IMG/VR virus record: IMGVR_UViG_3300021519_000006
Span: 35,939 to 99,938 of that record
DNA: 64,000 nucleotides
Reading direction: 5' to 3' (one strand)
From: a virus
The first letter of the stretch is position 1; every line of letters begins with the position of its first letter. Positions 4,719 to 52,470 of the stretch are shown piece after piece. The translations under genes were made by a program, and so were the position numbers. The notes under the pieces were generated by a model, which was not told the origin of the DNA, did not search any database, and was given only the letters and a program-made list of their open reading frames with translations.

Positions 4719-7693
4719 TTGTCTAGTGGCTTGCCAGTGTTTTCGCCAAGATCAAGAACACCTTCACGAGGCTCAGCAGTTTCCTTAATAGGCTTTGCTG
4801 CAAATTGTCCACGTGTTGGAACTCTAAGGTTCTTGTCTTCTTCACGAGATACTTCGCCGTGTGGAATATCTACAGCTTTGTCGGGGTTTGAATCGAAACG
4901 AACAGCAAGACCTGTTTCATCAGAACCAATTACGTGTCCCCCACCATGTTCTGGGTGAGTTATGCGAGTACCAGCTGCGTACATAGGAGTTTTTCCTGAA
5001 GTGCGAGAACGAGTTCCTCCTGAAGCTAATGCCGTTATGTCATCATCTTTTACTGTTTTAGCGAGTGAAGATTCTTTTTCAGTTAACTTATCGTTTTTCT
5101 TTACAACTTTACGAGGAGTTTGTGTTGGTGCGGGCGCAGAAGCTAAAGCTGCCATAGCCTGTTGGCGAGTAAACTGTTGGCTTACTTGCGAAGTCGGGGT
5201 ACCCAGTGTGCGAACAACTGCTGTATCCATAGCAGGAACAAAACTTTCACTTTCATCGTTAACTTTACCTGAGAACGGATTCTTACGTCCACCTTTTATG
5301 CTAACTCCGGATTCGTCTCCTGCATGTAATATAGGAAGTCCACGAAGATTTCTAACGGTAGTAGACTTTCCAGTTCCGCCTTCTGCAGTTGGCTTATCTA
5401 CCGTGTCTAAAGACACGCGAGCAGATTCTGAAGTTCCGGGAACAATTGCTCCTTTAAAACTAAGAAATTTCTTTTGTTTCTGTTTTTCAGTAAGTGGTGT
5501 TTTCTGCTTACCAGTAAGCGCGGGAGTGGAAGGAAAAGCTGCGCCTGGAGCTTGTGCAGGGGTAGGCTCAACTGGATCTGTGGATAGCCGTGTAATAGTG
5601 CCTTTCGTTGGCTTACCGCGGTGAACTTTAGATGCACCTGTAGGGTTAGCAAGTGTCTTAGCAATTTCTGCATGCTTAGCACGAGATAATGCTGAATCAC
5701 TTTGAGTAGGGGTTGCGGCACCAATTGTTGCAGCATTTTCTACTTCTCCTGTAGCCCAAGCTGCTCTTGCACGGCCAGTTGCTTGGTTTTGTGCAGAAGC
5801 TATTACGTTTGCACCTGTAGGCGCCCCACTACGGCTGCGTTTGTTTCGAGTATCAAGACCGTAAGTTTCTGTCTCCCCAGCAATAGCATTTTGTTTATCT
5901 GCTTCAGCACGGTTTGCCAAACGATCTTTTGTAGCCATCTTAGGGCTAATACGCTTGTACTTGTTAATGTGCTCTACTACGGTGTCAGCTGCATGCACGA
6001 TGTCTTTTGGAAGTTTGTTCTCAGTCCATACGTGGCGGGTGGTTCCGTCTTCAGCTCTGCGCTGTGTTCTAGTCCAACCTTCAAATCCACTTAGTGGACG
6101 AGTTTCACCAGCTGTGTAGTCTGATCCGGGAGCATTAGAAGTTACAAGTTCTCCAGAACCCTTAGGCAATTCATTTGTGCTGCGCTTAAAAGTATGACCA
6201 ATAGGTACTGGACGTTCTTCGTTAACGCCGTTAACTTTGTTTCCTGTTTCAAATGTATCGGTTGCACCAATGCCACCATTTTCATGGCTAAATGTATATT
6301 CTTTGCCTGAGCCAATACGTCCCTCTTCAAAACGCTTCTTCCCCATAACAAGGTCATGTACACCTAGAAGGCCTTCGCCCTTAAGGTTTTTAGCTGCGTT
6401 TTCTTTTACTCCGCCGTGAACAATCACGCGAGCACGGGTACGTGCCTCGGACATATGACCTTCAGACTTAAACTTAGGGTCATTAAGATCAGTACCGGCT
6501 AAGTTAGCTTCTTTAGCTAATACGTCTGGATGTTCGTATTCAAAATCACTTGCGTCTGGGGCGTTGTCAAAACGCTTTTGAGCATTTGCAGCAGCACGGT
6601 ATGCTTTTCCGGCAGGACGGTTAGTTCCTTCAGAAACCATGTTTTGTCCAGTAATGTTGTGAGGTCCTGGGTTAGGTCCTCGTTGCGCACGAGTTGCAGC
6701 CGCAGCCTCTACTTCAGAACGATCTGCGGGCTTTCCTTGCCAGTCTGTATTTGATTTTACAAACTTACGGTTTTGTCCACCTTCTTTTGCATCTGCAGCA
6801 ACAGTTAACCCTGCACGAACTTCGCTATCTTCATCTTCTGATAAATGGGTTACTTTTCCACGCTTACCGCGAGTACCCATCTTATCGGCTTTACTATCCC
6901 AAACATATTGTGTAGAAGGTTTAGGCACATTAGGTGCAACCTTTTCAGAACGTGCGCCCTTTTCGGCCTTAGTCTTTATAGCATCAATTCTTCCAGCTGT
7001 AGATGTCTCTCTATCTGTAGCCTCAGCAAGTTGCCCACGAACACTGGCAATTTGTTTATCATCTACTGTAAGTCCACCCTTTCCAGCTCTCTTTAACTTC
7101 TTGCCACTTTTTATTTTGCTGGCTTTATCGGCCTCAGCTGTAGCTAATGCAAGTGATAGGTCTGAAGATGAGAAGGGTTTACGTTCAGATTCTTCTTTAG
7201 TTTTAGGACCCATAAATTGAGGTCCTTTTACGCGCCGGTCTATTTCAGACAAAGGCTCTGTGTTTTGCCCGTACTTTTTTTGATTATCTTTTTTTCTTGC
7301 AGCGTAAGCATTTAATACTTTATCTTTATCTGGTTCAGCTGGATATTTTGGAGTAGGGCCAGCTGCTTTGCGAGCTTTTTCTGCAGCAAGCTCTTGATCT
7401 GATACGTGAAATTCATCTACTCTAGATCCTGCGGGTGCTGGACGTCCACCGTATGTAGGTGTAGGTGCAGGAGGAGGAGTTGTATCTACACGCGGTGCTG
7501 CGTTCATTAATATAGGCTTACCTTTAACCGGCTTTGCTTGTGCAGGTTTTTCTTTTGGCCCAATAAATGGTTCCGGTTGTTTCTTTACACGCAGTAACTT
7601 TGGTTTTGTTTTTAAATCATTATGCGCAGTGGCAACAGCGCGGTCAACATCTTCTTGACCAAAATCATTTACGTAATCTTTAATTGTAGCCAT
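4715..7693 (-). CDS. large basic low-complexity protein, possibly an internal virion protein
   Basis: 992-aa ORF rich in K/A/G/P/T; SH3-like C-terminal motif GTRITHPEHGGGHV. Confidence 0.75.
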   Translation of the reverse strand: MATIKDYVNDFGQEDVDRAVATAHNDLKTKPKLLRVKKQPEPFIGPKEKPAQAKPVKGKPILMNAAPRVDTTPPPAPTPTYGGRPAPAGSRVDEFHVSDQELAAEKARKAAGPTPKYPAEPDKDKVLNAYAARKKDNQKKYGQNTEPLSEIDRRVKGPQFMGPKTKEESERKPFSSSDLSLALATAEADKASKIKSGKKLKRAGKGGLTVDDKQIASVRGQLAEATDRETSTAGRIDAIKTKAEKGARSEKVAPNVPKPSTQYVWDSKADKMGTRGKRGKVTHLSEDEDSEVRAGLTVAADAKEGGQNRKFVKSNTDWQGKPADRSEVEAAAATRAQRGPNPGPHNITGQNMVSEGTNRPAGKAYRAAANAQKRFDNAPDASDFEYEHPDVLAKEANLAGTDLNDPKFKSEGHMSEARTRARVIVHGGVKENAAKNLKGEGLLGVHDLVMGKKRFEEGRIGSGKEYTFSHENGGIGATDTFETGNKVNGVNEERPVPIGHTFKRSTNELPKGSGELVTSNAPGSDYTAGETRPLSGFEGWTRTQRRAEDGTTRHVWTENKLPKDIVHAADTVVEHINKYKRISPKMATKDRLANRAEADKQNAIAGETETYGLDTRNKRSRSGAPTGANVIASAQNQATGRARAAWATGEVENAATIGAATPTQSDSALSRAKHAEIAKTLANPTGASKVHRGKPTKGTITRLSTDPVEPTPAQAPGAAFPSTPALTGKQKTPLTEKQKQKKFLSFKGAIVPGTSESARVSLDTVDKPTAEGGTGKSTTVRNLRGLPILHAGDESGVSIKGGRKNPFSGKVNDESESFVPAMDTAVVRTLGTPTSQVSQQFTRQQAMAALASAPAPTQTPRKVVKKNDKLTEKESSLAKTVKDDDITALASGGTRSRTSGKTPMYAAGTRITHPEHGGGHVIGSDETGLAVRFDSNPDKAVDIPHGEVSREEDKNLRVPTRGQFAAKPIKETAEPREGVLDLGENTGKPLDK

Positions 7694-12749: not shown

Positions 12750-13253
12750 ATGTCTACATTGACACTAAGTATGAAGGAACAACTCGCGCCAGTAGTGGCT
12801 ATCGAGTTGGCAGTTCTCAACGAGGGTGCTACAGCCTTCGGGATAGGCAAGGCGAAGGGTATCTTCAAGACCTACGCTGATGCGACCTTTTATGATGTGT
12901 ATGACCACATCACAAAGCAATCAGCCTCAACAGCAACCGCTGTTCTGTCTGGTCTCATCTCAGCACGCTACAACGTGCCTATCTCGTTCCTCGTACCTAT
13001 GCAAGACGACCTTGCCGAGGTATGGAGCACGTTCGACGCCACAACAGGCGACACCGAAGTTATGTTCGGTCGTCTGGTAGCACTCAAGGCTCGTCTCAAG
13101 GACGAGCGTGAGACAGCAGAAGCATCTGCTATTGCAGATGGTTCACTAGCGTCATCAAAGACCGTGACGCTAGTCAAGTCCCTTGGTAATCTCAAGACCA
13201 AGGGTGTTACATTCACCGAAGAGGAAAAGGCTGCGATTATCGCTGCCTTGTAA
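12750..13253 (+). CDS. hypothetical protein, first gene of rightward early region
   Basis: 167-aa ORF, AAGGA SD downstream of a hairpin. Confidence 0.8.
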   Translation: MSTLTLSMKEQLAPVVAIELAVLNEGATAFGIGKAKGIFKTYADATFYDVYDHITKQSASTATAVLSGLISARYNVPISFLVPMQDDLAEVWSTFDATTGDTEVMFGRLVALKARLKDERETAEASAIADGSLASSKTVTLVKSLGNLKTKGVTFTEEEKAAIIAAL

Positions 13254-13472
13254 TCGGTAATGGGTAGTGGCGGGGGCTCTATGTCCCCGCCTCTATCTAT
13301 GTCCATAGACATCTGTGGGCATAGATAGGGAGCAACTATCCCTATGGTAAGGGGAATCCGAATCAACTCGGTACGCAGGTGTATGGAAGTGAGGAGATGG
13401 TCAAACATCTCGCAGTAAAACTCCAACTGTTACACCGCCCCCGTAAGAGAAAGAATCTCGTGTCTTCTGTCG

Positions 13473-13521
13473 AAGAGACCCTAGTCAGCCCTTCAGCTAG
13501 TACTGGCTAGGGTCTCTTTTC
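13473..13521 (+). terminator. intrinsic terminator-like hairpin
   Basis: AAGAGACCCTAGTCAG/CTGGCTAGGGTCTCTT followed by T run. Confidence 0.7.
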
Positions 13522-13656
13522 ACATCCAAGCATAACTCTCATCATAGATAGATAACTCTCATCATAGTTAGTTAGGCTACTACAAATCTCACAAGTTGAG
13601 ACACCGAGAGTACAAGCAGGTCTGGGCTAGGGTGGGACTGCTGTTAGCAGATAGTC

Positions 13657-13780
13657 GGTGGAAGATACATAGTGGGGAGAATACTCCTGTAGTTACTAGA
13701 TACCACCATGGGCTCTATGCCTGTAAATGGGTGGCAAGTATGGAATACCACTATGTATCTCTCACTCTCTATCTGAGAGT
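13657..13780 (+). ncRNA. long-stem RNA cassette 1 (72-nt interior)
   Basis: 19-bp arms 13657-13675/13748-13766 with one A-C mismatch; alternative hairpin ACTCTC/GAGAGT before SD. Confidence 0.55.
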
Positions 13781-13795
13781 AGAAGGAGGACTGAT

Positions 13796-14221
13796 ATGGG
13801 ATCACCTATCAGACTTGAGTTCAACTGTTCTGAGTGCAAAGCAGATAACACCTTGCATTCCGGATGTACTCCTCGCATCAACGAGGACCGTATGGATTGG
13901 ATTCCATTCGAAGTGGATTACAGATTCACATTCAGATGTACTGAGTGTGAGTTACCTAATCTATTCCAAGGCACAAAGGAGTCAGGCTTTACCCCCGTGC
14001 CAACACAAACAAACCCCGCCGTAGTGCACGCTGTTCTTATCTTAGGCTGGCGTTACGGAGAGCCTGTACAACGTCTCTTTGGTATCTATCAAGACATAGA
14101 GATAGCCCATGCATCTGCTACCACGTGGATCAAGCGTAACCCCGGCAAGTATGCAGATGATGAAAAGAACGATGATGGTGAAAATGCAACATTCTACATT
14201 AGAGAGATGCCCCTACTATGA
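13796..14221 (+). CDS. hypothetical protein with two CxxC motifs
   Basis: AAGGAGG SD before ATG 13796, in frame with track ORF 13727. Confidence 0.7.
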   Translation: MGSPIRLEFNCSECKADNTLHSGCTPRINEDRMDWIPFEVDYRFTFRCTECELPNLFQGTKESGFTPVPTQTNPAVVHAVLILGWRYGEPVQRLFGIYQDIEIAHASATTWIKRNPGKYADDEKNDDGENATFYIREMPLL

Positions 14222-14484
14222 AAGGAGAAGTAATGTCAGACGAACTTATTACCCTCAAAATCGGTATATTCGATTTTACTGTGATTACGGATGCACTCAC
14301 TGATTGTGATTGTCTAAGTAAGGAATGTAAACGTCTTATCAGTAATTTCCAAGCGCAGAAAGAAGGAGAAGCAGTAAATACCTGCTTTGGATGTAAGAAT
14401 GCGGTCACTGTTGCTGAGGCTATCTATTATGAGACTTATCGTCTTTGTCCAAAGTGTTACAAGTATTGGGACCCCACGCCATGA
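14218..14484 (+). CDS. Cys-rich hypothetical protein
   Basis: CFGC...CPKC. Confidence 0.65.
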   Translation: MKGEVMSDELITLKIGIFDFTVITDALTDCDCLSKECKRLISNFQAQKEGEAVNTCFGCKNAVTVAEAIYYETYRLCPKCYKYWDPTP

Positions 14485-14588
14485 CAATACTTGATTACTT
14501 AGACCCAATGCAATCAGGTCTGCCTATCACTCTTATGTGGCTATCTATCTCTGCATCTATCTGTTATCTCCTCTTTAGTAAGAAGTAA
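14481..14588 (+). CDS. 35-aa single-TM peptide (absent from track)
   Basis: MTILDYLDPMQSGLPITLMWLSISASICYLLFSKK; ATGA overlap. Confidence 0.5.
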   Translation: MTILDYLDPMQSGLPITLMWLSISASICYLLFSKK

Positions 14589-14627
14589 TACACCAAAAGG
14601 ACCCCGCGAAATTTTACCGTGTGAAGT

Positions 14628-14835
14628 GGTGGAAGGCACATAGATGGTGGACCTATACCGTGAGGTGGCTAACTTAGTTGATGCTATTCAAGGTGTTGGA
14701 AGGAACCAATAACGGATTAATTTCTGGACGGTTGCCGACCCATTACTCTCCACAGTTCCCGCTGTAACAGTAGTGCCTTTGGAATGCCCATTACTAAGAC
14801 TATCTATGTGTCTCTCACTCTCCACAAGGAGAGTG
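14628..14835 (+). ncRNA. long-stem RNA cassette 2 (150-nt interior)
   Basis: 21-bp arms 14628-14648/14799-14819 with one A-C mismatch; alternative hairpin CACTCTCC-ACAA-GGAGAGTG. Confidence 0.6.
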
Positions 14836-14853
14836 CTATACAAGGAGGACAAA

Positions 14854-15033
14854 GTGTCATCCGACACAAACAACACACCCGACTGGGAATACATCAAGAA
14901 GCAAGGGATGCGAGTCAATAAGCATCTTCATAACCACTATAACGACCTAATGCACCGAGCAGCCTGCGACATCTGTATGGCCTTCTTCATCGGTGAAAAT
15001 TATGGCAAGTTGACTGAGGAGGAAAAACAATGA
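14854..15033 (+). CDS. hypothetical protein
   Basis: AAGGAGG SD before GTG 14854. Confidence 0.6.
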   Translation: MSSDTNNTPDWEYIKKQGMRVNKHLHNHYNDLMHRAACDICMAFFIGENYGKLTEEEKQ

Positions 15034-15200
15034 GAGGTTATCTATTCAGATCGTTGATTGCGCTAGTTGCACCTAACTACGCTCTTGACAAGGATAACTA
15101 TGGGCAGATTATCATCTACACCCATAAGAAAGAAGTTGATGATGATCGGTATGTAGAGATGGTCTCTGCAGACTTTGGAATATATGACAAGGAGGACTAA
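15030..15200 (+). CDS. 56-aa hypothetical protein (absent from track)
   Basis: GGAGG SD, ATGA and TAATG overlaps. Confidence 0.6.
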   Translation: MRGYLFRSLIALVAPNYALDKDNYGQIIIYTHKKEVDDDRYVEMVSADFGIYDKED

Positions 15201-15442
15201 TGCCTGACGACGTAACAGTTATCAGCGTAGGCACACACATCGAGTCCAATGGAGGAGATGTTCTAGCTTGTAAGCCGGGCAGTTACCGAAATACAACTAT
15301 TGTCCTGTGTTACTTACCACAGAACAAAGTAACCCCTTTCGTTGTACACACATACAACGAGACTCAAGGTATCTGCTTTCGAGGTCAATATGGTTTCACA
15401 CTTGAAGAAGCAATAACCGACTACAAGAACAGGAGAACATAG
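15200..15442 (+). CDS. hypothetical protein
   Basis: 80-aa ORF with AAGGAGG SD. Confidence 0.65.
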   Translation: MPDDVTVISVGTHIESNGGDVLACKPGSYRNTTIVLCYLPQNKVTPFVVHTYNETQGICFRGQYGFTLEEAITDYKNRRT

Positions 15443-15672
15443 TGTCCAACACAAACCCCCGCGCAGCACACATCTATAACCCCGAAGACGGTGGCACTAA
15501 CATGGAAATTGTCATCAGCCCCGATACTTGGTGGCACGCCGTCTGTAACGATGACATCAGGCTGACCAACAAGGAATACAACGAGCTAGACGATAGTGAA
15601 GTGGACTTGTGCCATCCCTGCGTCAAGAAAGCCAAGGAGGATGATCCCGATGGCTTTATCTACAATCTATAA
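15442..15672 (+). CDS. acidic hypothetical protein
   Basis: 76-aa ORF with AGGAG SD. Confidence 0.6.
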   Translation: MSNTNPRAAHIYNPEDGGTNMEIVISPDTWWHAVCNDDIRLTNKEYNELDDSEVDLCHPCVKKAKEDDPDGFIYNL

Positions 15673-15776
15673 AACCTGTACAACAACAATCACTACAACA
15701 ACCACAATAACAACAAAAACAACCCGCATTGTGCACGGAATTACCGTGCCTGTGCACATCCTAGAAGGGAATACGA

Positions 15777-16292
15777 ATGGCAACATCTATGAATACGCTC
15801 ACAGTAAGACGAGTTGATCTATTAGAGCAACTCGAAGAGCGTTACACATACATGACCCAAGAAAAGGTAAAGTATGAGAAAGCTGTGGAAAAGTTCCACG
15901 CTTTGACTAAGAAATATGATGCAGACTTAGAGAAGTGGGAAGCACGTGTGCCCACACTACTAGAAGGTATGGTTAGAGGGTCTGACATAGACTACTCACA
16001 TAACACAGAGAGATACGGCAGATACCAGTGGAATCGTGAAACTTGGAATGCAAGCATTAGTGTATCTCTCAACCGCGATGAAGTAACACGACTAATAGGG
16101 CCAGAGCCTACAAGACCAGAGGCTCCTGATACCCCCGAATTTTTACAACAGCGTAGATTAACTAGAGGTTATTCTGCTCCTCCAGCCCCATCATTATACG
16201 AAGCTGTATACCAAGCCATTGCAATCCTTAGTATTTCTAATGATGATGATGTTAAAGCTCAGATGTTCAACGACGTAATGTTGGCACTCTAA
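15777..16292 (+). CDS. coiled-coil hypothetical protein (paralogue of 17425-17859)
   Basis: N-terminal coiled coil, G..P..P linker, Y..(V/I)..AIA(I/L) C-terminal motif. Confidence 0.75.
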   Translation: MATSMNTLTVRRVDLLEQLEERYTYMTQEKVKYEKAVEKFHALTKKYDADLEKWEARVPTLLEGMVRGSDIDYSHNTERYGRYQWNRETWNASISVSLNRDEVTRLIGPEPTRPEAPDTPEFLQQRRLTRGYSAPPAPSLYEAVYQAIAILSISNDDDVKAQMFNDVMLAL

Positions 16293-16513
16293 TGAAACTA
16301 TTCTGTGATTACATCAACGATAAACAAGAAGCACGGTTCCAAGAGCACCTCACAGTGTGTGATGATCCCCAACACAAACAATCCACCATCCACATCCACC
16401 GCCTGATAGTAGACATATTCGACACGGACCGCATCAAATACCCACGATGGCAATACTGGATCGATAGCATCCTCGTATTCCTTAGATTGGACGGAACCAA
16501 TGGAAAATATTAA
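16292..16513 (+). CDS. hypothetical protein
   Basis: coupled ORF. Confidence 0.5.
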   Translation: MKLFCDYINDKQEARFQEHLTVCDDPQHKQSTIHIHRLIVDIFDTDRIKYPRWQYWIDSILVFLRLDGTNGKY

Positions 16514-16970
16514 AACACACATAGTTGAGTGTTCACGATGTCAAGCGCCCCAAGTATTCAGGAACGCACCGGGGTACATGGACTCAGACATACCAGTAGC
16601 ACTGGAACTATCCCTAGATGGTGGCTACGCAATGTTCGTAGACAATATCTACTACGTTGGTGACAAGAACCCATTGGAGTTCATGCTCTGTCACAAATGT
16701 GCCCACGAATTTACACAGTTTATGAACATACCCGAGACAACAGTAACTAGTTGGCATCCTAAAACAGATGATGCTTTCTGTAATGGTTGGACAATGCTAG
16801 GAAGCATGGAACGTGAGTTAGAGGTATTCAAACAAAAGCTTTACGATCTTGTATACATCAACGAACACACGATGATAGTGCCGTTTGATGACTACGCACA
16901 TAAAAAAGCACAGTTAGAAGAACTAATCCAACTACAAGAAGAAAGGATCAAAGAATGTACATCGAACTAG
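16500..16970 (+). CDS. Zn-binding hypothetical protein
   Basis: CSRC...GGY..FVD...LCHKCA. Confidence 0.7.
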   Translation: MENIKTHIVECSRCQAPQVFRNAPGYMDSDIPVALELSLDGGYAMFVDNIYYVGDKNPLEFMLCHKCAHEFTQFMNIPETTVTSWHPKTDDAFCNGWTMLGSMERELEVFKQKLYDLVYINEHTMIVPFDDYAHKKAQLEELIQLQEERIKECTSN

Positions 16971-17047
16971 ATATGTCTAGCGCAACAACTATGACAATAG
17001 TTCTAGCCATCGTTGTTGTAGTTATTGTATTCATACGACGTAAGTAA
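16955..17047 (+). CDS. 30-aa single-TM peptide (absent from track)
   Basis: MYIELDMSSATTMTIVLAIVVVVIVFIRRK with AAGGA SD. Confidence 0.55.
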   Translation: MYIELDMSSATTMTIVLAIVVVVIVFIRRK

Positions 17048-17052
17048 TCGTA

Positions 17053-17358
17053 TTGATAGGGCAGAAGACATACGCATACAGGCTGTTATTACATAGAGGC
17101 CTAGGAATTTAGTGGATGAGTTACGAGTCTGCTATTTTTACTAGACGGAATTGGTAGCACCAATGAGCGAACGACTGTAGTGCCAGAGATACCCTGCGGG
17201 CTTGCGAAAACCTATTACAGTACCTCGGTTGAATTTGGGGGATACCCCAAGTTAGTTGTACGAGTGCAAGAAGGCGCTTGTGAAAGGAGTCTCGTCGTAA
17301 TTCGACAGTAGTATGCGTATGTCCTCTGTCTTATCAACAGAGAAAGGAGATAAGACAG
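17053..17358 (+). ncRNA. long-stem RNA cassette 3 (231-nt interior)
   Basis: 27-bp arms 17053-17079/17311-17337 (2 G-U, 1 A-C); alternative perfect 10-bp pairing 17326-17335/17349-17358. Confidence 0.65.
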
Positions 17359-17424
17359 CACCAACACAAACAAACACCCCCACAGCCGTGCTGGGTGTCC
17401 CGTACCAATAGAGAAAGGGTTACC

Positions 17425-17859
17425 ATGGCAGCAACCAAGGTAATTGCAACAACTTGGGATAAAGCACATTTACTCAAGAAGCTAAATGACACACTCAAGC
17501 GTATGGACGCAGAAATAGTTGCATGGGAAAAAGATAATGCAACTCTTGAAAAGCGTCAAGAAGCATGGGAGAAAAAAGCAGTTGCTTGGGCTCTTAAAAA
17601 CATGCCCAAATCAAAAGATACAGACGCAAGTATGTATCACAACCGATTCCAATTGAACATCTCGTTTGATCTTCAATTGGCTACGGATGCTTTAGGTGAA
17701 CGTCCTACTCAAGAACGTAAACCACAATACAAAGAAGGTCATTACTCTGAACTTAATGATTATGACCAAATTGAAAATGCTATTGCTTTGATTGAAGGCT
17801 CAACTGACACTGAGTTTAAAATCAATACCACATCAGTGTGGGCATCTTTCATTCGATAA
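17425..17859 (+). CDS. coiled-coil hypothetical protein (paralogue of 15777-16292)
   Basis: start reassigned to MAATK after AAAGGG SD. Confidence 0.75.
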   Translation: MAATKVIATTWDKAHLLKKLNDTLKRMDAEIVAWEKDNATLEKRQEAWEKKAVAWALKNMPKSKDTDASMYHNRFQLNISFDLQLATDALGERPTQERKPQYKEGHYSELNDYDQIENAIALIEGSTDTEFKINTTSVWASFIR

Positions 17860-17971
17860 CGCTTAACGCGGTTGGTTTCTATAGTTCTTCCTGAGGTAAA
17901 AGAACTCCTCACCTAAGCATGTGAAGGATAAACTGCTTACCAACACAAACACTCACAAAGGACAACAAACT

Positions 17972-18190
17972 ATGCTACAAACCTTTGGTAAATACATTCG
18001 AGACAAGTATGGAAACTTCGTGTGGAAAGAAACACAGGTTAAACCTCCGTCATTAGATAACTCAACAGCAAAATTACTATTCATTGTAGAAGCACAGCTG
18101 TTTCACGGCTGTACCCGCAAAGAAGCAATGATGCTGTGGGAAGACGGCATCGATACTCTATACAACACAATAAGTGAGGAGGAACTATGA
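17972..18190 (+). CDS. hypothetical protein
   Basis: AAGGA SD before ATG 17972. Confidence 0.6.
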   Translation: MLQTFGKYIRDKYGNFVWKETQVKPPSLDNSTAKLLFIVEAQLFHGCTRKEAMMLWEDGIDTLYNTISEEEL

Positions 18191-18324
18191 AACTATGGTT
18201 ACTGATCGGACTAACAACTAACATCATCTCTATTTGGACTGCGCTGTATTGGCGTGAACGATATTGGGATGCAGAGCGTATGCGAATGTATCTTCGCAAG
18301 TTAGATGCACGAAATGTTAAATAG
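18187..18324 (+). CDS. 45-aa membrane peptide (absent from track)
   Basis: MKLWLLIGLTTNIISIWTALYW...; GGAGG SD, ATGA overlap. Confidence 0.55.
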   Translation: MKLWLLIGLTTNIISIWTALYWRERYWDAERMRMYLRKLDARNVK

Positions 18325-18664
18325 TCTCAACAACCTATCTACATACAATCCAGACAACTTCAAGTGGCAAGATAATGCAGCGTGCAAAGACTTGCCCGTA
18401 AGTATGTTCTACTACGATCACAATGAACGTGGTCCCGACAGAGATTACAGGGAGCGTACCGCGCTTGCTGTATGCAATACCTGCCCAGTCAAGGCAGTGT
18501 GTCTACAAGACGCAATTGACAGAAACGATACACACTCTATACAGGGTGGAACTACTCCAGTGATGCGTGGGCACAAGCTTCGTAGTGTGCCTGAGTATCC
18601 TATTGAAGTAGTTAGAGTAGAAATGGAGGAAACAAATGCGACTACGACATCGCAAACTAGCTAA
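18305..18664 (+). CDS. whiB: WhiB-family transcription factor
   Basis: WQDNAAC...CNTCPVKAVC...IQGGTT. Confidence 0.88.
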   Translation: MHEMLNSLNNLSTYNPDNFKWQDNAACKDLPVSMFYYDHNERGPDRDYRERTALAVCNTCPVKAVCLQDAIDRNDTHSIQGGTTPVMRGHKLRSVPEYPIEVVRVEMEETNATTTSQTS

Positions 18665-18941
18665 GCTCATAGAACGCAAGATGGTTGAGGAAGAAATTGA
18701 ACTCAATGATCTAGAATCACAGCACAGTCGTGCATACCATACTGGTGTAATTGATGGATTAGGTCAAGCCCTATTCCTTATTGCACCGGAACGTGCACGA
18801 CGCAATCCAATCAGCATCGTATGGTTTGATGAAGACTACGATGTGCCCCAACACAAACAATCACGCCTACAAGAAATCGACAGAGAACAAAGTTTCGACG
18901 TCAACCATTCAGCTCTGTTTGACACATCCGAGGCACGTTAA
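18636..18941 (+). CDS. hypothetical protein
   Basis: 101-aa ORF with GGAGG SD. Confidence 0.65.
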   Translation: MRLRHRKLAKLIERKMVEEEIELNDLESQHSRAYHTGVIDGLGQALFLIAPERARRNPISIVWFDEDYDVPQHKQSRLQEIDREQSFDVNHSALFDTSEAR

Positions 18942-19633
18942 TGCGTGTCTATGACTATGTCACAGGTGAGTTATGGCTCAAAGGTGGACAAAAGAAAATA
19001 GAACGACCCCTATATACACGCGGTGCTAGGCTATTTCAACGAGCCGATCACATTGCCGTAGCCCTTGGTTGGGCTCAATCATACGATGTGGTGTTGTTTT
19101 ACCCAGATGGCACCACAACTATTCAATGTCAAGCCAATGGTCATTGGAATCCTTTATGGAGTCAAGGAGTTAGAGCAATTATCCGTGACTTCTCAGGCTT
19201 ACACGACGTACATCAACGTAAGAATAAATGGTACATAGTGGAAGCCAATCCATCACGCACGCCACCAAAGATTCAAGGTTGCAGAATGTGCAAACGCACA
19301 GGTTTGGTAGACGTACAGTGTTGGGGTCCGCGCAGTTGTTACAACAGCATACCGTGCGAAGACCATCCCACAGCAGTACTCGACCCTAAGAACCCTCACG
19401 CAAGATGGCATGAAGCAGAACAATGTGAGCACAATAAAACTGCTAGGCACATGATGTACAGAGCAGATAAGTGTTATTCCTGTAGCGGTATGGGAATGCG
19501 CGACTACGGTAGTAAATTAGTTTCTCTTCAATGGGATGGTTTCCCAGTCCGATTGAGAGAAGGCAAGGTAATAAAGCAAGAACCAACCGAACTAGAGAAG
19601 AGGATAGCAAACTATGTCAAACCCAACAGTTGA
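18941..19633 (+). CDS. hypothetical protein with DnaJ-like CxxCxxxG motifs
   Basis: CRMCKRTG and CYSCSGMG. Confidence 0.7.
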   Translation: MRVYDYVTGELWLKGGQKKIERPLYTRGARLFQRADHIAVALGWAQSYDVVLFYPDGTTTIQCQANGHWNPLWSQGVRAIIRDFSGLHDVHQRKNKWYIVEANPSRTPPKIQGCRMCKRTGLVDVQCWGPRSCYNSIPCEDHPTAVLDPKNPHARWHEAEQCEHNKTARHMMYRADKCYSCSGMGMRDYGSKLVSLQWDGFPVRLREGKVIKQEPTELEKRIANYVKPNS

Positions 19634-20120
19634 GTATGACAGTTCAGCAACAATAAACACAGGAGCCACAGCAGAACAACCAGTAACAGCACGAAGAATA
19701 CTGAGTAGCGGTGGTATCCCTGAGAACTTAGTAACAACTTCAAGAGCTAGTAAAAACTACAGAGATGCCGTGTTAGCAGACCTATTACTTAATGTTGAAC
19801 CTGGGCAACCAACTTCAACAATTGTTTTAGATACATTGCGAACTGCAGTCCGAGCATCACAAGATGGAAGCATTGACTTGCAGGTATACACCGAGTATCT
19901 TGCAGCTTTAGCCTTTGCTTGGGGTGACAAAGAACTAGCTGCCGTTACGATCATGCGTAGTAAGCCTGAGTATGCTGCAGTATCAACCCATACTATGAGC
20001 ATTGTATCTGCCATAACTAAACAGATGCCTAGCCCATTTTACTTAAGCTTGCTGGTATCGCAAGGGCCAGCAGCTTCAGACGCATGGTTACAAGAACAGT
20101 CTTCCCACTTCCCTAACTAA
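19614..20120 (+). CDS. DUF4192-like helical protein
   Basis: RDA.L...LAALAFAWGD.ELA......PEY. Confidence 0.55.
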   Translation: MSNPTVEYDSSATINTGATAEQPVTARRILSSGGIPENLVTTSRASKNYRDAVLADLLLNVEPGQPTSTIVLDTLRTAVRASQDGSIDLQVYTEYLAALAFAWGDKELAAVTIMRSKPEYAAVSTHTMSIVSAITKQMPSPFYLSLLVSQGPAASDAWLQEQSSHFPN

Positions 20121-20478
20121 CGCCAACACAAACAAACCAGCCTATTAGACGGTCAGCGGGAGCCATTTATGACGAAAACTGCCTTCCTAAGAACTGGTAT
20201 GTCGTTGGTAAATGCTGCAGAACACAGAGAAGTAGTCTGCAACATACTTGATCAAACCCAAGCCGGAAACAAGACGGCACCAGCACGCGTGGATGGTTAA
20301 ACGGGACCAGTTAGTCTCACCAACCGCCACCTGCCAGTCGGACCTGAGTCGCCCGTAGTTGCTAATGCATCCAGTCCCTGTACCACTTCCTACGTAATGT
20401 GTTCAACTCAGCCCCTAGAGGGCACGTCATATTGGCGTGCTCTCTAGGTTTACCTACTACAACAAAGGAGATAGACAT

Positions 20479-20733
20479 ATGTGTGAAGCATGTGAGAACA
20501 ACGACGATGAAGACTTCTCATCACAAGATTTTAATTTTAATAGTCTTAATGATGAAGAAAAAGAAGAGTTCTTTGAGTACCTCAGTAAGCAGATGAACCT
20601 CGTAATAAATAAAGCCGAATCACACGGCGTGTTGTTTGACCTAATTACGGAGTGGCCTCGAGGCAAGGTAGTAGCATTCGAGATGGCTACCGTATTAGAG
20701 AACCGCGTCTTAAATGACGACGATGAGGAGTAA
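20479..20733 (+). CDS. acidic hypothetical protein
   Basis: AAGGAG SD before ATG 20479; D/E-rich ends. Confidence 0.65.
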   Translation: MCEACENNDDEDFSSQDFNFNSLNDEEKEEFFEYLSKQMNLVINKAESHGVLFDLITEWPRGKVVAFEMATVLENRVLNDDDEE

Positions 20734-20830
20734 CTAAGTTTCCTCTGCGCAAGCAGAGGGATGCTACCGATAGTCGGTAGTAGTTGTCGCAAGACAACAA
20801 CGATTCCAATACCTAGAAGGGGTAAGTTAT

Positions 20831-22270
20831 ATGGATATCGCAATATTCACAGAGTCATACACACCAAGCATGGGGGCTAAGCGCCGTCAGGTGCTAATAA
20901 CTCCGCATGGTGACGATGTACGCATCTACTCACGTGAGACAGATGGGACCAAGGGTCCCCACAATAAGTGGGAAGAAACAGACTTCGATGGTCTCACTGG
21001 ACAGATTGACAGCGACGAGCAACTCACTCGTACGCCTGTTGCTGTGTACGTTACAGCGACAGATGAAGAAGCTATGACTGCTAAGGGCTATTCCCCAGTA
21101 CTCGGCACCAAAGCATGTCAAGCACATACCAAGGCTGCACTCAACGTAGATCCAAGTTCATTCTTGGAACGTGTGTGCGAGTTGTATGAGCAAGTTACAT
21201 CGCAAGATGTAGCGTTGAGTGAGTACATCATCGACAACCGTCGTGGTTCTGGTTCTACTGTGCCTTTGGTAACTATGCCAACACAAACAACTCCAGCCCC
21301 ACAACTAAACCAACACGTATTAGATAAGTTTGAAATTAAAATGGAATCTAATACTAACAACGGTTCGGTTATCATGGCGTCACTAGCATCAGTGCCACGC
21401 ATTGAGCTAGCCAAGCGCTATGTTCATCGTAAAGTCTTCGAAGTAGAAGACTTCAAGGTGTTCGATCATGCTCGTGCCAACAACATCAACGTACTTATTT
21501 ACGGCCCTACTGGTCCAGGTAAGACAACGTCTGTTGAAGCATGGGCTGCTGAGCGTGGCCTACGTATGGCTACCGTATCTGGTAATGCTTCTATGGAGCC
21601 AAGCCAGATGACTGGTAAGTTCGTATCCGATGGCAACGGTTCGTTTGCATGGATTGATGGCCCTGTTACTGACGTAGTCCGTAACGGTGGTGTCTTGCTT
21701 CTTGATGAGGTTAATTTCATCAGTCCTAAAATCTATACCGTCTTGTATTCCCTACTTGACGGACGTCGCATGATTACATTGCTTGATCATCATGGCGAGA
21801 CTATTGAGGCGCACAAAGACCTCACTATCTTCGCAACTATGAATCCGGATTACATCGGCACAACGTCGTTGAACTTCGCATTCCGCAATCGCTTCGACAT
21901 CCAAATCCCTTGGGATTACGATGACAAGGTTGAAGAGAAATTAGTTTCATCTAAGTCTCTTCGTGTCTTAGCGAAGCAATTACGTACTGAAGCAGCCAAG
22001 GGTCAGTACGAGACTCCAATCTCAACCAATATGTTGATGGAGTTCCACCATTTCGTAGACGCATTGGGTTATGAGTTCGCAGTTGAGAACTTCATCGCTC
22101 ACTTCTCTACGGATGAACAGCCAAGCGTTCGCTTGGTGTTTCAGACACACGAATACAATATCAAAGGTGACTTTGGTATTGAGATTCCTATGCCTGAACA
22201 AGCAGCAGAAGGACAGTCAATTGAAGAGAAGTTGACTGAGTGGGCTGGCAATCTTGCCGGTCAAGTATAA
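20831..22270 (+). CDS. MoxR/CbbQ/CobS-like AAA+ ATPase
   Basis: GPTGPGKT, WIDGP, LLLDEVN, ATMNPDY, FRNRF. Confidence 0.9.
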   Translation: MDIAIFTESYTPSMGAKRRQVLITPHGDDVRIYSRETDGTKGPHNKWEETDFDGLTGQIDSDEQLTRTPVAVYVTATDEEAMTAKGYSPVLGTKACQAHTKAALNVDPSSFLERVCELYEQVTSQDVALSEYIIDNRRGSGSTVPLVTMPTQTTPAPQLNQHVLDKFEIKMESNTNNGSVIMASLASVPRIELAKRYVHRKVFEVEDFKVFDHARANNINVLIYGPTGPGKTTSVEAWAAERGLRMATVSGNASMEPSQMTGKFVSDGNGSFAWIDGPVTDVVRNGGVLLLDEVNFISPKIYTVLYSLLDGRRMITLLDHHGETIEAHKDLTIFATMNPDYIGTTSLNFAFRNRFDIQIPWDYDDKVEEKLVSSKSLRVLAKQLRTEAAKGQYETPISTNMLMEFHHFVDALGYEFAVENFIAHFSTDEQPSVRLVFQTHEYNIKGDFGIEIPMPEQAAEGQSIEEKLTEWAGNLAGQV

Positions 22271-22282
22271 GAAAGGTAAACC

Positions 22283-24214
22283 ATGTATAACGAAGAGTTA
22301 GACGATGGTTATCGTTACAGGGAAGCCAGAGATGAAGAAGCACAAGAACGTGCTGTCCGACTCAATGCACTGTGCCGTGTTTACGAACAAGGTGACCGTG
22401 TATTAACTGGCGACCCAGTCATCGTAAATGTGATGCCGGATGGCCCCGCACCAGCGTGGTCAGACGGTGCCGCTATCTACATCAATCTTGATCAGATTGA
22501 GGACATGGACCTTGAGACATTAACTCAAGTTACTGGCCTCAACTATCATGAGTTAAGCCATCACTTGTACTCGCCCCGTAAGGGAACGACGTTCATGCAA
22601 TGGGTTATAGAAAATGGTCAGATTCAAGCTACAAATATTCTCGAAGATCAACGTATCGAAACATTATTTGTAGCACGCTATCCAGCTGTTGCTTCATACC
22701 TTACAGCCATGGTTTCTAGGTGGTTAGGTAAAGATGAAGATGGCATGCATGGTAACTACATCTGTATACGCGGACGTCGTTACCTACCTGTTGAGATTCG
22801 TCAAGCGTTCCGTGATGAGTTCGCTTTCCCAGATGTAATCCCAGCAGCTATTGACATCATCGATCAGTATCGTCTCTTAGCATTTCCTCGTGACTATGAC
22901 AAGGGCAAGGAACTGATTGAGCGATTCACCAATGAGGTACTGATTCCTATGGGCATCAAAGATGACCACACACATCAGGGTGGTCCCAATGGTTGCGGTC
23001 AACGCATGCCCGTAAGTAAGGGTCGACCTGAGCCCGGCAAAGCTCAAGAGAAAGACTCTGATCGTGCCAAGGGTATGGGTACAGCAGAAGCTCCGTGGTA
23101 TCCAAAACCTAAGCAAGCTCCAACACAAACACCCACCAACGACGCCGATAAACCAATTGGCAGCAATGATGATGGTGATGGTGATGGTGATGGTGATGAT
23201 CCATATAGCAAACCGTTACAACCTATTACTACAGAACAAGCACTAGATATACGCGACAAGGGTGTAGACCATACGCCAGCGTCTACCGCAGGTTCTGGTC
23301 ACGTTGATAGTCTCGGCGGTATTCCTAAGAATATCAATGACATGCTCAACGATGCTATTGATAATGTCCTTGCACGCAAGGATGTTCAAGCAGACATCAA
23401 AGCCAAGCAGAAAGTTATTGTTGGTGGAGATGGTAAGCATGATGACATTACTAAGAAGGGTAAGTTCGACAAGACTTCCGTTCCCAACGAATCCATCATT
23501 GCATACCGCAAATTCGCTCAAGAGTTACAACGTTTACGCGATGACATGGAACCTACGTGGGATAAAGAAACACCCACCGGTAGGCTTAATGTTCAACGTG
23601 TTATCCGAGGCTGTGAGATTGATGCAGCCTTCGATCGTTGGGATGAGGGCGACGATGGATGTGATATTGAGGCCGTCATCCTAGTGGATCGATCAGGATC
23701 AATGTCCAGTCAACAGAACGATAAGAAGGCTTCCATCGCCTGCTGGACTATCAAGCGTGCTCTTGAGTCAATTCAAGCGCCCGTTACTGTCTATGCCTTT
23801 GATGACGCAGCTGAGGTTGCTTACTCCCGCAAAGAGTTAGCAGACAAGACTCAGTACAAGTTCATCTACGGCAACGGCGGTACTGAACCATACCCAACAC
23901 TGTTAGTTGCAGAGCAGTTACTTATGTCTTCTCGCAAGAAGAACAAAATGCTGTTCATGGTAACTGATGGTGTGTTCGACTCCCAGAAAAATGATGTAAT
24001 TATTGAGCGTATCGGTAAGCGTGGCATTCTCACAGCCATGACGCTGATTATGACTGACAGTGATTACAAATACTATGTGGATGATCGAGGTCAAGATCCA
24101 AAGCAATTCCATCATAATGCTGAGGTTTTTGCTCGTATCAACAATGCCAGTGACTTACTGCCGTTTGCTAAGCAAGTAGTTACATCCGCAATCAAAAAGC
24201 GTGGAAGACGCTAA
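22283..24214 (+). CDS. VWA-domain protein with N-terminal HExxH (CobT-like partner of the AAA+)
   Basis: HELSH, NILEDQRIE, MIDAS DRSGSM, GGT, VTDG. Confidence 0.88.
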   Translation: MYNEELDDGYRYREARDEEAQERAVRLNALCRVYEQGDRVLTGDPVIVNVMPDGPAPAWSDGAAIYINLDQIEDMDLETLTQVTGLNYHELSHHLYSPRKGTTFMQWVIENGQIQATNILEDQRIETLFVARYPAVASYLTAMVSRWLGKDEDGMHGNYICIRGRRYLPVEIRQAFRDEFAFPDVIPAAIDIIDQYRLLAFPRDYDKGKELIERFTNEVLIPMGIKDDHTHQGGPNGCGQRMPVSKGRPEPGKAQEKDSDRAKGMGTAEAPWYPKPKQAPTQTPTNDADKPIGSNDDGDGDGDGDDPYSKPLQPITTEQALDIRDKGVDHTPASTAGSGHVDSLGGIPKNINDMLNDAIDNVLARKDVQADIKAKQKVIVGGDGKHDDITKKGKFDKTSVPNESIIAYRKFAQELQRLRDDMEPTWDKETPTGRLNVQRVIRGCEIDAAFDRWDEGDDGCDIEAVILVDRSGSMSSQQNDKKASIACWTIKRALESIQAPVTVYAFDDAAEVAYSRKELADKTQYKFIYGNGGTEPYPTLLVAEQLLMSSRKKNKMLFMVTDGVFDSQKNDVIIERIGKRGILTAMTLIMTDSDYKYYVDDRGQDPKQFHHNAEVFARINNASDLLPFAKQVVTSAIKKRGRR

Positions 24215-28850: not shown

Positions 28851-28894
28851 AAAATACCCATTTCTCTATAAAAGTTGACTGTTATCAGGTGATG

Positions 28895-52414: not shown

Positions 52415-52470
52415 ATTTTGCCCTCCTTAAAACCAAACTCTATACCACGCCACTGACATGATGCAACTTG

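Follow-up and report, generated by a model that had tools for sequence, protein, structure and literature searches.

Conserved RNA clamps with interchangeable cargo in the early region of an actinobacterial lake-water phage

Three long stems ahead of early genes

The early region of a 99.9-kb lake-water phage contains three long stems that lie between genes, and the question they raise is whether such structures serve to release the segments that they enclose, as the initial annotation proposed, or act in some other way. The phage carries a WhiB gene and its host is therefore an actinobacterium. In the 64,000-nt stretch of this genome analyzed here (the window), all genes listed from 12750 to 24214 are encoded on the + strand, and the stems, also read on the + strand, are located directly 5' of an RBS. 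We refer to these structures as clamps, each being a purine-rich 5' arm paired with a CU-rich 3' arm over about 20–30 bp. C1, C2 and C3 are the sole non-coding long clamps across the 99.9-kb genome.

All three stems were recovered at the coordinates originally proposed and, within the spans first assigned to them, every deviation from Watson-Crick pairing is a G-U pair, save for a single A-C mismatch per stem that lies within a GAAG motif. The 5' arm of C1 (13648..13675) consists of an outer CAGATAG (13648-54), a 2-nt loop and the inner GGTGGAAGATACATAGTGG (13657-13675), and is followed by a 72-nt cargo (13676..13747) and the CU-rich 3' arm (13748..13775; CCACTATGTATCTCTCAC-TCT-CTATCTG). Its inner stem (13657-13675/13748-13766) leads through a 2x2 internal loop to an outer 7-bp helix (13648-13654/13769-13775), spanning about 28 positions. 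C2 comprises the 5' arm GGTGGAAGGCACATAGATGGT (14628..14648), a 150-nt cargo (14649..14798) and the 3' arm ACTATCTATGTGTCTCTCACT (14799..14819), and C3 a 5' arm (17053..17079), an interior (17080..17310) and a 3' arm (17311..17337). The sole A-C mismatches are A13662xC13761 in C1 and A14633xC14814 in C2, in both of which the A is the first A of GAAG, and A17066xC17324 in C3, in which, unlike in C1 and C2, it is the second.

No inverted repeat in the window is longer than C1 and C3, whose scores (21.0 and 23.5, respectively) lie above the maximum of 18.0 found in 30 dinucleotide shuffles of the window. The score of C2 (16.5) is within the chance range when taken alone (0.37 such stems per shuffle), and C2 is accepted as real because relatives conserve it and because it is a homologue of C1. 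The whole-element RNAfold z-scores are -3.3 for C1, -1.8 for C2 and -5.55 for C3. The duplexes, which are supported by covariation, have 19-28 paired positions in C1, C2 and C3, and 29-33 in the Streptomyces phages described below.

Upstream of C1, and 3' of a terminator hairpin (13473-13518), there is a direct repeat of two copies of ATAACTCTCATCATAG (13534..13569, + strand). This motif and a partial inverted copy of it are kept in relatives beside TTGGCT-N17-TATGAG, according to an alignment of upstream regions; the latter sequence is promoter-like and we infer a promoter there, and a sigma-70 scan detected nothing strong at the repeat region (13534..13569). Small hydrophobic ORFs, both on the + strand, are located directly 5' of C2 (35 aa, 14482..14588) and of C3 (30 aa, 16955..17047). 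The motif GTAATACACCAA..CCCCGCGAA comes after the former ORF and also stands 5' of C3-type elements in relatives; the end of the latter ORF (..CGTAAGTAA) likewise has equivalents 5' of such elements. The covariance models of Rfam 15, among them those for tRNA, tmRNA, 6S, Y RNA, riboswitches and ribozymes, gave no hit in 13300-17600 even at E up to 5, none in the window that reached gathering score, and none on the cassettes of four relatives at E up to 1, and the sole ARAGORN match was tRNA-Asn at 52470. A VWA protein gene (22283-24214) adjoins a gene for a MoxR-type AAA_5 ATPase; when a Ro/Y RNA system was sought, the TROVE domain was not detected in this VWA protein at E up to 1, nor did the protein have a solved relative.

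One scaffold and many cargos

Sequence comparison places C1, C2 and C3 in a conserved, undescribed clamp family with interchangeable cargo. The arms of C1 and C2 recur in 55 related loci from viral and lake metagenome contigs, which represent 44 unique cassettes. In 33 unique C1/C2-type arm pairs, with position 5 set aside, the non-Watson-Crick oppositions comprise 46 G-U pairs, a single A-C and 3 others, and the excess of G-U over A-C argues that the structure acts as sense-strand RNA. At position 5 a C is mismatched in every cassette, with A in 39 and U in 5, and this fixed mismatch lies roughly one turn of the helix (11-14 bp) below the cargo. Double compensatory changes are found at arm positions 9 and 13-16. 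The pairing pattern shows the clamps to be sense-strand RNA structures on one conserved scaffold; it upholds the initial view of the stems as plus-strand RNA structures that have an architecture in common and a conserved mismatch against C. The proposed check for covariation in homologous loci likewise uncovered compensatory changes, both in the C1/C2 arms and in C3.

The strand bias also bears on the idea that the clamps are parts of a DNA-level mobile or invertible element, such as an inverton, an integron-attC-like site, a MITE or a retron. Segments of 30-400 bp flanked by imperfect inverted repeats of 20-30 bp would fit such an element, but the G-U pattern is strand-biased and recurring cargo types each occur in one orientation only, which makes this explanation highly improbable. 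Individual candidates were rejected as well. The genome has no match to Phage_integrase or Resolvase (tyrosine/serine recombinases), as would be needed for an inverton or integron attC site, nor to RVT_1 (reverse transcriptase), as for a retron; in four DNA runs only 'skip' joints without strand changes were seen, which is weak evidence against an inverton as these are contigs; and, against a MITE or small transposon, the interiors are mutually unrelated, single-copy in the genome and free of target-site duplications.

The 44 unique C1/C2-type cassettes enclose 24 unrelated cargo types of 27-158 nt, the shortest cargo in any cassette being not under 27 nt. The presence of 24 types in the same arms and their swapping among close relatives support the view that the interiors behave as exchangeable cargo. 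The 72-nt cargo type of C1 occurs elsewhere only in G001, a close relative from the same record as L099, whereas unrelated cargos fill the C1 arms in other relatives, and a contig in other lake samples skips exactly over the C1 cargo (13672->13751). At the place of C2, G001 has an unrelated 68-nt cargo, and homologues of the C2 cargo are found in L125 and, within an upstream tandem cassette, in L104. The C2 cassette shows 98.4% identity over 252 nt in L125, above the 81-91% identity of the flanks, which suggests that its cargo is under selection or was recently exchanged. Some cassettes stand in gene-free tandem arrays with units 17-31 nt apart, in which the covariation of the arms is consistent with pairing inside each unit. 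In the window, no coding interior was detected for C1 or C3: the 72 nt of C1, like the short cargos of the family, are too short for a gene, and the pattern in C3 is structural. No cargo complementarity to the phage genome was found, nor any meaningful match of the cargos to 401 sampled Actinomycetota genomes. Taken alone, the short cargos are not unusually structured (mean z -0.59, with 6 of 24 below -1.5), so the earlier statement that each interior folds holds only in part; the interior of C3 does covary as a structure.

Such exchange might mean that the arms matter mainly as DNA, that is, as short homology blocks for recombination that shuffles early modules, with the RNA fold being secondary. 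Breakpoints between relatives do fall at the arms, and contigs skip the cargo. In one X2 contig 13779 is directly connected to 14627, an X2 contig matching to 14644 (in the C2 5' arm) runs into another cargo type, and L096 and L103 have a small gene inserted between duplicated TTATCAGGTA motifs. The T4-type PeSL provide a precedent, as these and the clamps are short conserved regulatory motifs in hyperplastic early regions and module-swap points among related phages (PMC2839356, PMC4122927). However, a PeSL is a promoter with a small local stem-loop flanking genes, whereas a clamp consists of two distant arms that pair around the swapped segment, with the pairing itself selected. Homology blocks have no need to be mutual inverted repeats, neither the 46:1 bias of G-U over A-C nor the compensatory changes would be expected of them, and recombination at the arms is an expected by-product of any conserved sequence; we consider this explanation quite unlikely.

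A conserved structured RNA at C3

The interior of C3 is, on the evidence of alignment A1, RNAalifold, pair counts and model R1, the multi-branched core of a conserved structured RNA family of ~290 nt. In the alignment, 32 of the 53 pairs are changed on both sides, a number reached in 0 of 500 shuffles, and 90.4% of the cells are paired, as opposed to 37-50% with the partners slid. Outside the window, model R1 detected full-length C3 copies in ten distinct related records, G004 included, several records being matched via overlapping loci. The interior varies by compensatory pairs and by non-triplet indels. Not all C3-type members have the mismatch: in G003, from the same record as L101, this position is paired and a C-A mismatch occurs three positions away, while L100 shows G-G at the mismatch position.

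Clamps in cultured Streptomyces phages

In the cultured Streptomyces phages BRock, GiJojo, pSt2308 and Alone3, a clamp of 29-33 bp with the same A-C mismatch and with compensatory changes in its outer part surrounds the first early gene. This clamp is similar, and probably homologous, to that of the lake phages. The enclosed gene (gp9) is a real gene (39% aa identity) with its RBS and stop codon inside the loop, and only in Streptomyces phages is the cargo coding. Since a clamp can enclose a protein-coding gene, it is a general bracketing module rather than specifically the sRNA-delivery device of the original proposal.

The sequence of the arms, and of the 3' arm above all, is conserved far past pairing needs, with the qualification that search patterns fixed the 3' arm and its invariance is partly ascertainment. 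This conservation suggests that something reads the arms by their sequence, as RNase III is not known to do. The clamp could be a site for a sequence-specific protein, either an early protein of the phage or a dsRNA-binding host enzyme titrated by decoy arrays, with the mismatch as an identity element. Arm sequence, G-U positions and mismatch are all kept from the lake phages to the Streptomyces phages, whose PolA is just 37-39% identical, and arrays would multiply the copies of such a site. Still, no candidate partner was found, no known protein family being detected for any gene neighbouring the clamps, and a pure decoy would have no use for variable cargo, yet none is shorter than 27 nt. 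We therefore find the protein-site interpretation doubtful.

A second partner for the 3' arm

The distal 3' arm had also been noted to have alternative pairings downstream (ACTCTC/GAGAGT, CACTCTCC/GGAGAGTG and CTGTCTTATC/GATAAGACAG), and all of these were found. Relatives retain this alternative partner directly downstream of the outer 3' arm, with covariation in the C3 type, and the resulting hairpin B follows 41 of 41 distinct terminal 3' flanks. Hairpin B of C1 (13764..13780, + strand; ACTCTC, loop TATCT, GAGAGT) is mutually exclusive with the outer clamp helix and lies just 5' of the RBS (13783-13790) and the ATG at 13796. That of C2 (14816..14835, + strand; CACTCTCC, ACAA, GGAGAGTG), located 5' of an RBS and the GTG at 14854, merely abuts the clamp (2-3 nt overlap) without real competition, and is compensated in G001 (ACTCTTC/GAAGAGT). 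Hairpin B of C3 (17326..17358, + strand; CTGTCTTATC, a 13-nt loop, GATAAGACAG) competes with the outer 10 bp of the clamp, and this arrangement is kept with different, compensated sequences in 9 of 10 family members.

The existence of two mutually exclusive conserved pairings is what would be expected if the clamp stayed uncut and acted in cis as a structural insulator or switch, looping out the cargo, masking the C-rich, G-poor 3' arm (e.g. from Rho or 5'-end-dependent RNases) and toggling between outer helix and hairpin B to affect the translation or stability of the next gene. In some relatives (L092, L119), hairpin B overlaps the RBS; in BRock, the ORF, RBS and stop codon fit in the loop with the clamp undisturbed; and the retention of the 3' arm sequence past pairing needs would be in line with such a role. 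On the other hand, gene-free tandem arrays offer no gene between units to regulate, the RBS stays clear of hairpin B in C1 and C2 of the window, and the 24 swapped cargo types are left without a reason. A switch of this kind is possible, with a probability well short of even.

A putative processing module

The clamp is probably an RNA processing and stabilizing module. We give about an even chance to a specific version of this reading, with a putative cut by host RNase III, release of the cargo and refolding of hairpin B. Each clamp in the early polycistronic transcript would fold once its 3' arm is transcribed, and a host double-strand-specific endonuclease, most likely RNase III, would cut it and thereby free the cargo with paired, exonuclease-resistant termini. 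The leftover 3' arm would refold into hairpin B, a protective 5' stem-loop on the downstream mRNA directly before the RBS, and the fixed mismatch may position or limit the cut. A family search of the genome found no RNase III gene encoded by the phage, the control search giving a match in the actinobacterium Corynebacterium glutamicum, so the enzyme would need to come from the host. No RNA run was found to contain the sequence. Three features weigh against this reading: the mismatch is missing from some C3-type members, the arm sequences are kept past pairing needs, and hairpin B of C2 scarcely overlaps its clamp.

Among the substrates of RNase III are duplexes of about two helical turns, such as the stems flanking pre-rRNA and the T7 early sites, and helix imperfections restrict its cut (PMC8708148). 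Like these stems (T7 R0.3, R0.5, R1.1 and others; pre-16S/23S), clamps are duplexes of at least about two helical turns between polycistronic units, and imperfections are common to both (PMC8708148). As in pre-rRNA stems, the strands of a clamp are far apart and enclose the product; as with the T7 sites, clamps occur in an early operon, that of BRock bracketing the first early gene. In contrast to the RNase III stems, one conserved scaffold sequence serves many unrelated cargos and tandem arrays, the helix is interrupted by a single fixed mismatch against C instead of an internal loop, the 3' arm then has a conserved second partner, and cleavage is putative.

Stabilization by paired ends has been engineered: flanking inverted repeats stabilize RNA inserts in E. 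coli (PMC1635301), and a paired-termini design has been used in Streptomyces (PMC3694883). In paired-termini antisense RNAs, as in clamps, the flanking repeats form a double-stranded clamp and the insert needs no structure; stabilization of the insert is the declared aim of that design (PMC1635301). The former, however, are a laboratory design with a 38-bp perfect repeat, whereas the clamp occurs naturally, is imperfect and conserved, and has a switch hairpin after it, and for none of its cargos was an antisense target found in the phage genome or the 401 Actinomycetota genomes. C3 resembles the RNA polymerase-binding 6S RNA and the actinobacterial Ms1 RNA in that all are about 300 nt long, have their 5' and 3' ends in a long helix and share an actinobacterial setting (PMC9130861, PMC4191392); Ms1 homologues are undetectable by sequence even among actinobacteria (PMC9130861). 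The likeness is one of size and topology only, as the C3 core is multi-branched and 6S/Ms1 form a rod with a central bubble, and there is neither sequence likeness nor an Rfam match.

A tentative extension of the processing reading, which we rate as conceivable but not likely, is that the clamp is a natural portable RNA expression platform, in which a mismatch-reading nuclease would free trans-acting cargos (antisense RNAs or protein decoys) that actinobacterial phages load singly or in arrays. In animals, pri-miRNA clusters are tandem hairpins cut by Drosha, with a positioned mismatch motif in the lower stem and a variable upper part. Clamps are similar, by analogy only, in having tandem units in one transcript and a mismatch-bearing lower stem; they differ in that pri-miRNAs are cut by a eukaryotic enzyme and yield the stem as product, whereas the product of a clamp would be the loop. 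If the platform reading is true, its cargos would change fast from one strain to the next owing to a part in host takeover or counter-defence, and the clamps would be a bacterial-virus counterpart of pri-miRNA clusters.

Three clamps in the window

The initial annotation had described three intergenic elements, C1 (13657-13766), C2 (14628-14819) and C3 (17053-17337), each built as a clamp, that is, a long RNA stem whose 5' arm pairs with a distant 3' arm around an enclosed cargo, the whole forming a cassette. All three stems are present at these positions. C3 (27 bp) and C1 (28 positions including the outer helix) are the longest two inverted repeats of the 64-kb window, and their G-U-permitting scores of 23.5 and 21.0 exceed the maximum of 18.0 in 30 dinucleotide shuffles; the C2 score of 16.5 is insufficient on its own against the shuffles. 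Outside coding repeats, the genome contains no other long clamp. As had been noticed, each stem contains one A-C mismatch (A13662/C13761, A14633/C14814 and A17066/C17324), all remaining deviations being G-U pairs. Folding of the whole elements gave z of -3.3 (C1), -1.8 (C2) and -5.55 (C3); most cargos folded alone are not unusually structured (mean z -0.59). The suggested Rfam search, run together with ARAGORN, assigned the cassettes to no RNA family and found no tRNA-like gene on them, whether in the window or in relatives.

Another inverted repeat, on the minus strand at 55768-55987 (27 bp, 166-nt spacer), has a minus-strand score equal to that of the cassettes; it was excluded as a clamp because it is coding, inside the primase gene (55205-56182). 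Upstream of the window (positions 27600-29400 of the whole genome), long GGTCCT-type triplet repeats coding for collagen-like Gly-X-Y produce many spurious inverted repeats.

The phage, its host and the early region

The source, an IMG/VR virus record of 99,938 bases of which the window comprises bases 35939-99938, is rated complete by CheckV. The phage encodes PolA, an SNF2 helicase, a primase, a class II ribonucleotide reductase and a MoxR/VWA pair, as well as a WhiB protein (18305-18664) that indicates an actinobacterial host. A search with the ribonucleotide reductase found actinobacterial relatives (Saccharopolyspora, Actinotalea), without naming a host. By PolA, the closest cultured relatives are Streptomyces phages (37-39% identity). 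No close DNA relatives of the window were found in the GenBank phage collection; IMG/VR contains 210 related contigs, among them several genomes of about 100 kb, and the public runs containing the phage sequence are lake-water metagenomes, with no RNA run among those listed. The MoxR/VWA pair (20831-24214) consists of a MoxR-type AAA_5 ATPase (479 aa) and, after it, a protein of 643 aa that has a VWA domain at its C-terminus and whose N-terminal part matches no known family. A Y RNA/Ro system was considered and rejected, as this VWA protein is not a TROVE protein.

From 12750 to 24214, every listed gene is on the plus strand. C1 is preceded by a terminator hairpin (13473-13518) and a conserved intergenic region, and a sigma-70 scan detected no convincing promoter beside any cassette. 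Also upstream of C1, the direct repeat ATAACTCTCATCATAG occurs twice (13534-13569); in relatives, a promoter-like TTGGCT-N17-TATGAG is flanked by one ATAACTCTCATCATAG copy and, facing it, a partial inverted copy (CTATGAGCATTGAGAG). The region could be an operator and promoter of the early operon. The proteins flanking the cassettes belong to no PHROG or Pfam family, and a peptide-pattern search of IMG/VR found no close relatives of them. Tiny hydrophobic ORFs at 14482-14588 (35 aa) and 16955-17047 (30 aa) terminate just ahead of C2 and C3, respectively. The motif GTAATACACCAA...CCCCGCGAA follows the ORF preceding C2 and is also present upstream of C3-type RNAs in four related loci (L095, L101, L100 and L102). 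A CA-rich motif, CCAACACAAAC(AA), is repeated across the early region (14000-14014, 14862-14880, 15445-15457, 16369-16383 and 17362-17376), often at the extreme start of a gene, where it is translated as M-P/S-T-Q-T-N; it is also found downstream of cassettes in the related loci L099, L096 and L114.

A family of scaffolds of the C1/C2 type

Related viral and lake metagenome contigs were scanned with patterns on the 3' arm, after which the partner arm was located. At least one cassette was found at 55 loci, yielding 44 unique cassettes with 33 unique arm pairs. Their consensus starts with TTATCAGGTAG and 3-4 free bases, followed by GTGGAAG and a variable inner stem; beyond the cargo come the complementary strand of that stem, CTCTCAC, TCT and CTATCTG. 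The invariance of the 3' arm core is partly by construction, as the patterns fixed it; they placed no constraint on the inner stem, on the flanks or on the 5' arm. The outer helix is paired in 41-43 of the 44 cassettes, and the 16-bp inner stem shows two-sided joint changes at positions 9 and 13-16 (TA/GC/CG, AT/CG/TA and so on). Position 5 is mismatched against C in every cassette (A in 39, U in 5). The remaining non-Watson-Crick pairs comprise 46 G-U, one A-C and three others. A DNA inverted repeat would be expected to accumulate G-T and A-C equally, so this bias indicates that pairing has been selected as sense-strand RNA, bearing out the proposal of a plus-strand RNA structure.

The same bias speaks against a mobile or invertible element acting at the DNA level, which is an unlikely explanation of the repeats: the phage genome encodes no recombinase or reverse transcriptase, and no inversion was seen in contigs from the DNA runs, although such contigs are weak evidence. 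Retron, inverton and integron variants of this idea were rejected for the missing enzymes and the lack of observed inversion.

C3 represents a separate structured RNA family

Nine homologues of C3 were aligned over about 290 nt. RNAalifold predicted 53 pairs, with compensatory changes in 31. Pair counts gave 90.4% of cells paired, as opposed to 37-50% with the partners slid, and two-sided changes in 32 pairs; none of 500 shuffles reached any of the five measures. A covariance model recovered full-length copies not only in the window, whose copy is the most divergent (175 bits), but also in ten distinct related records, G004 being one of them; it had no match in Streptomyces phages. The C3-type clamp is fully compensated, and in the record G005 (containing locus L085) the outer helix has been replaced outright. 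Most members retain the A-C mismatch; locus L100 has G-G at this position, and in G003 (the L101 record) the position is paired and a C-A mismatch lies three positions away.

Relatives possess further clamp classes, with interiors of 100-181 nt, that the C3 model fits poorly (L085:760-915 in G005, L096:4174-4406, L097:2335-2565, L104:1692-1920 and L093:13915-14132). Their arms are in the style of the cassettes, with a purine-rich 5' strand, ..CACAC.. and one A-C mismatch. Rfam holds no family for C3 or for these classes. The C3 family of about 290 nt, which covaries strongly and lacks known relatives, is a new structured RNA.

Exchange of cargos and tandem arrays

The 44 cassettes enclose 24 mutually unlike cargo types of 27-158 nt, in agreement with the earlier view that unrelated interiors sit in shared arms; none is shorter than 27 nt, in a search that allowed lengths down to 7. 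The same cargo type is found with differing arm variants, and relatives having the arms and flanks of C1 carry different cargos. Contigs of other lake samples skip the C1 cargo (13672 to 13751), and another contig follows the window as far as 14644, within the C2 5' arm, and then enters a cargo type otherwise known from C1-type cassettes of other phages. The C2 cassette is 98.4% identical to its counterpart at locus L125, with flanks at 81-91%. A role of the arms mainly in recombination is a rival explanation of the scaffold. An ORF of 32 aa, Cys-rich and zinc-ribbon-like, is inserted between two TTATCAGGTA copies in L096 (approximately 1560-1690) and in L103 (upstream of 7620); the outer 5' strand of the clamp has served there as an insertion or recombination junction.

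Gene-free tandem units spaced by 17-31 nt are found in loci L142 and L114 and, with variant arms, in L096 and L104. A CRISPR-like repeat-spacer arrangement, in which each 3' arm would pair with the 5' arm of the next unit, was rejected because the inner stems of L142 are unlike between units and match within them, so arm covariation fits within-unit pairing only and the clamp reading is right. In a variant contig from the public DNA run X2, the three genes between C1 and C2 are missing and 15 other bases link the C1 end (13779) with the C2 start (14627); this would be a tandem array in a close relative.

Cargos antisense to the phage itself were rejected: the sole complementarity of at least 14 nt is a 16-nt, one-mismatch match at chance level (E 0.13), from a cargo type absent in this window. 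An origin from, or action on, the host found no support in 401 sampled Actinomycetota genomes, a sample that may omit the true host lineage: 13640-17360 gave only chance-level short matches. The best, of 23 nt, falls in an intergenic stretch rich in AT, and about 0.6 such matches would be expected by chance across the sample.

An alternative pairing of the 3' arm

Where a cassette is the last before a gene, the bases that directly follow CTCTCAC have a GAGAGT-type partner downstream in all 41 distinct flanks, with compensated variants such as ACTCTTC/GAAGAGT and CACTCCT/GGGAGTG. In the C1/C2 type, this pairing (hairpin B) leaves in its loop the bases that would otherwise be one strand of the outer clamp helix. 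In C3-type elements, a better copy of the 5' arm lies downstream as a partner for the outer ~10 nt of the 3' arm, and the arrangement is kept in 9 of 10 members despite quite different sequences. The switchable 3' arm, previously proposed from inspection, is thus supported by comparison. A structural switch that operates uncut is one rival account of the clamps.

A probably homologous clamp in cultured Streptomyces phages

In Streptomyces phage BRock (L186), a generic search for stems identified one long clamp, 5505-5535 with 5941-5971, containing one G-U pair and one A-C mismatch, the latter 14 bp from the inner end. Its 5' arm starts with TTAGCAGGCAGT, compared with TTATCAGGTAGT in the lake consensus. 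This clamp recurs in GiJojo (L187), pSt2308 and Alone3, where its outer part shows compensatory changes and the mismatch is unaltered. Here the cargo is a gene, gp9 (BRock L186:2053-2427; GiJojo gp202, L187:1128-1484), so the clamp is not limited to non-coding cargo. The gene encodes an acidic protein of about 120 aa (39% identity between BRock and GiJojo), and its ribosome-binding site and stop codon lie within the loop, each about 15 nt from an arm. This early gene is the first to follow a strong promoter-like site with its long CA-rich leader; the BRock and GiJojo leaders contain CA-rich repeats (CAGCAAGACAGCAACAC) similar to those of the window. The protein is very acidic, has a D/Y-rich tail and resembles DNA-mimic anti-restriction proteins such as T7 Ocr in position and charge. 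The Streptomyces-phage clamp is probably homologous, as well as similar, to the lake clamp, which would therefore predate the split of the two phage groups.

Possible mechanism and significance

At the level of sequence comparison, the scaffold is established as a sense-strand RNA with a fixed helix defect, a free cargo and a conserved alternative pairing. In the best reading, a double-strand-specific nuclease would cut the clamp, releasing the cargo with paired ends, and the downstream mRNA would acquire a 5' hairpin. Such cutting would be like that by RNase III at pre-rRNA stems and T7 early sites (PMC8708148), and the effect on the cargo like that of paired termini on engineered RNAs (PMC1635301, PMC3694883). 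The phage encodes no RNase III gene. The arms are strongly conserved in sequence, which hints at a reader more specific than an RNase III-type nuclease, and a protein-binding or decoy site is a further rival to cleavage.

The scaffold is described in no Rfam family and in no paper found in literature searches. It is best filed as a variant of processing or paired-termini stems, with a real chance that it is an RNA expression platform in its own right. Should the clamps indeed process and stabilise RNA, they would join the few RNA-processing signals known from actinobacterial phages, and their retention from uncultured lake phages to cultured Streptomyces phages makes them testable at the bench. 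It also offers a ready-made natural counterpart to the paired-termini design for stabilising expressed RNAs, in a phylum for which such tools are scarce. That one scaffold serves 24 unrelated short RNAs, swapped among close relatives and stacked in gene-free arrays, points to a hidden, fast-evolving repertoire of non-coding RNAs in phage early regions, which are usually read only for small orphan proteins.
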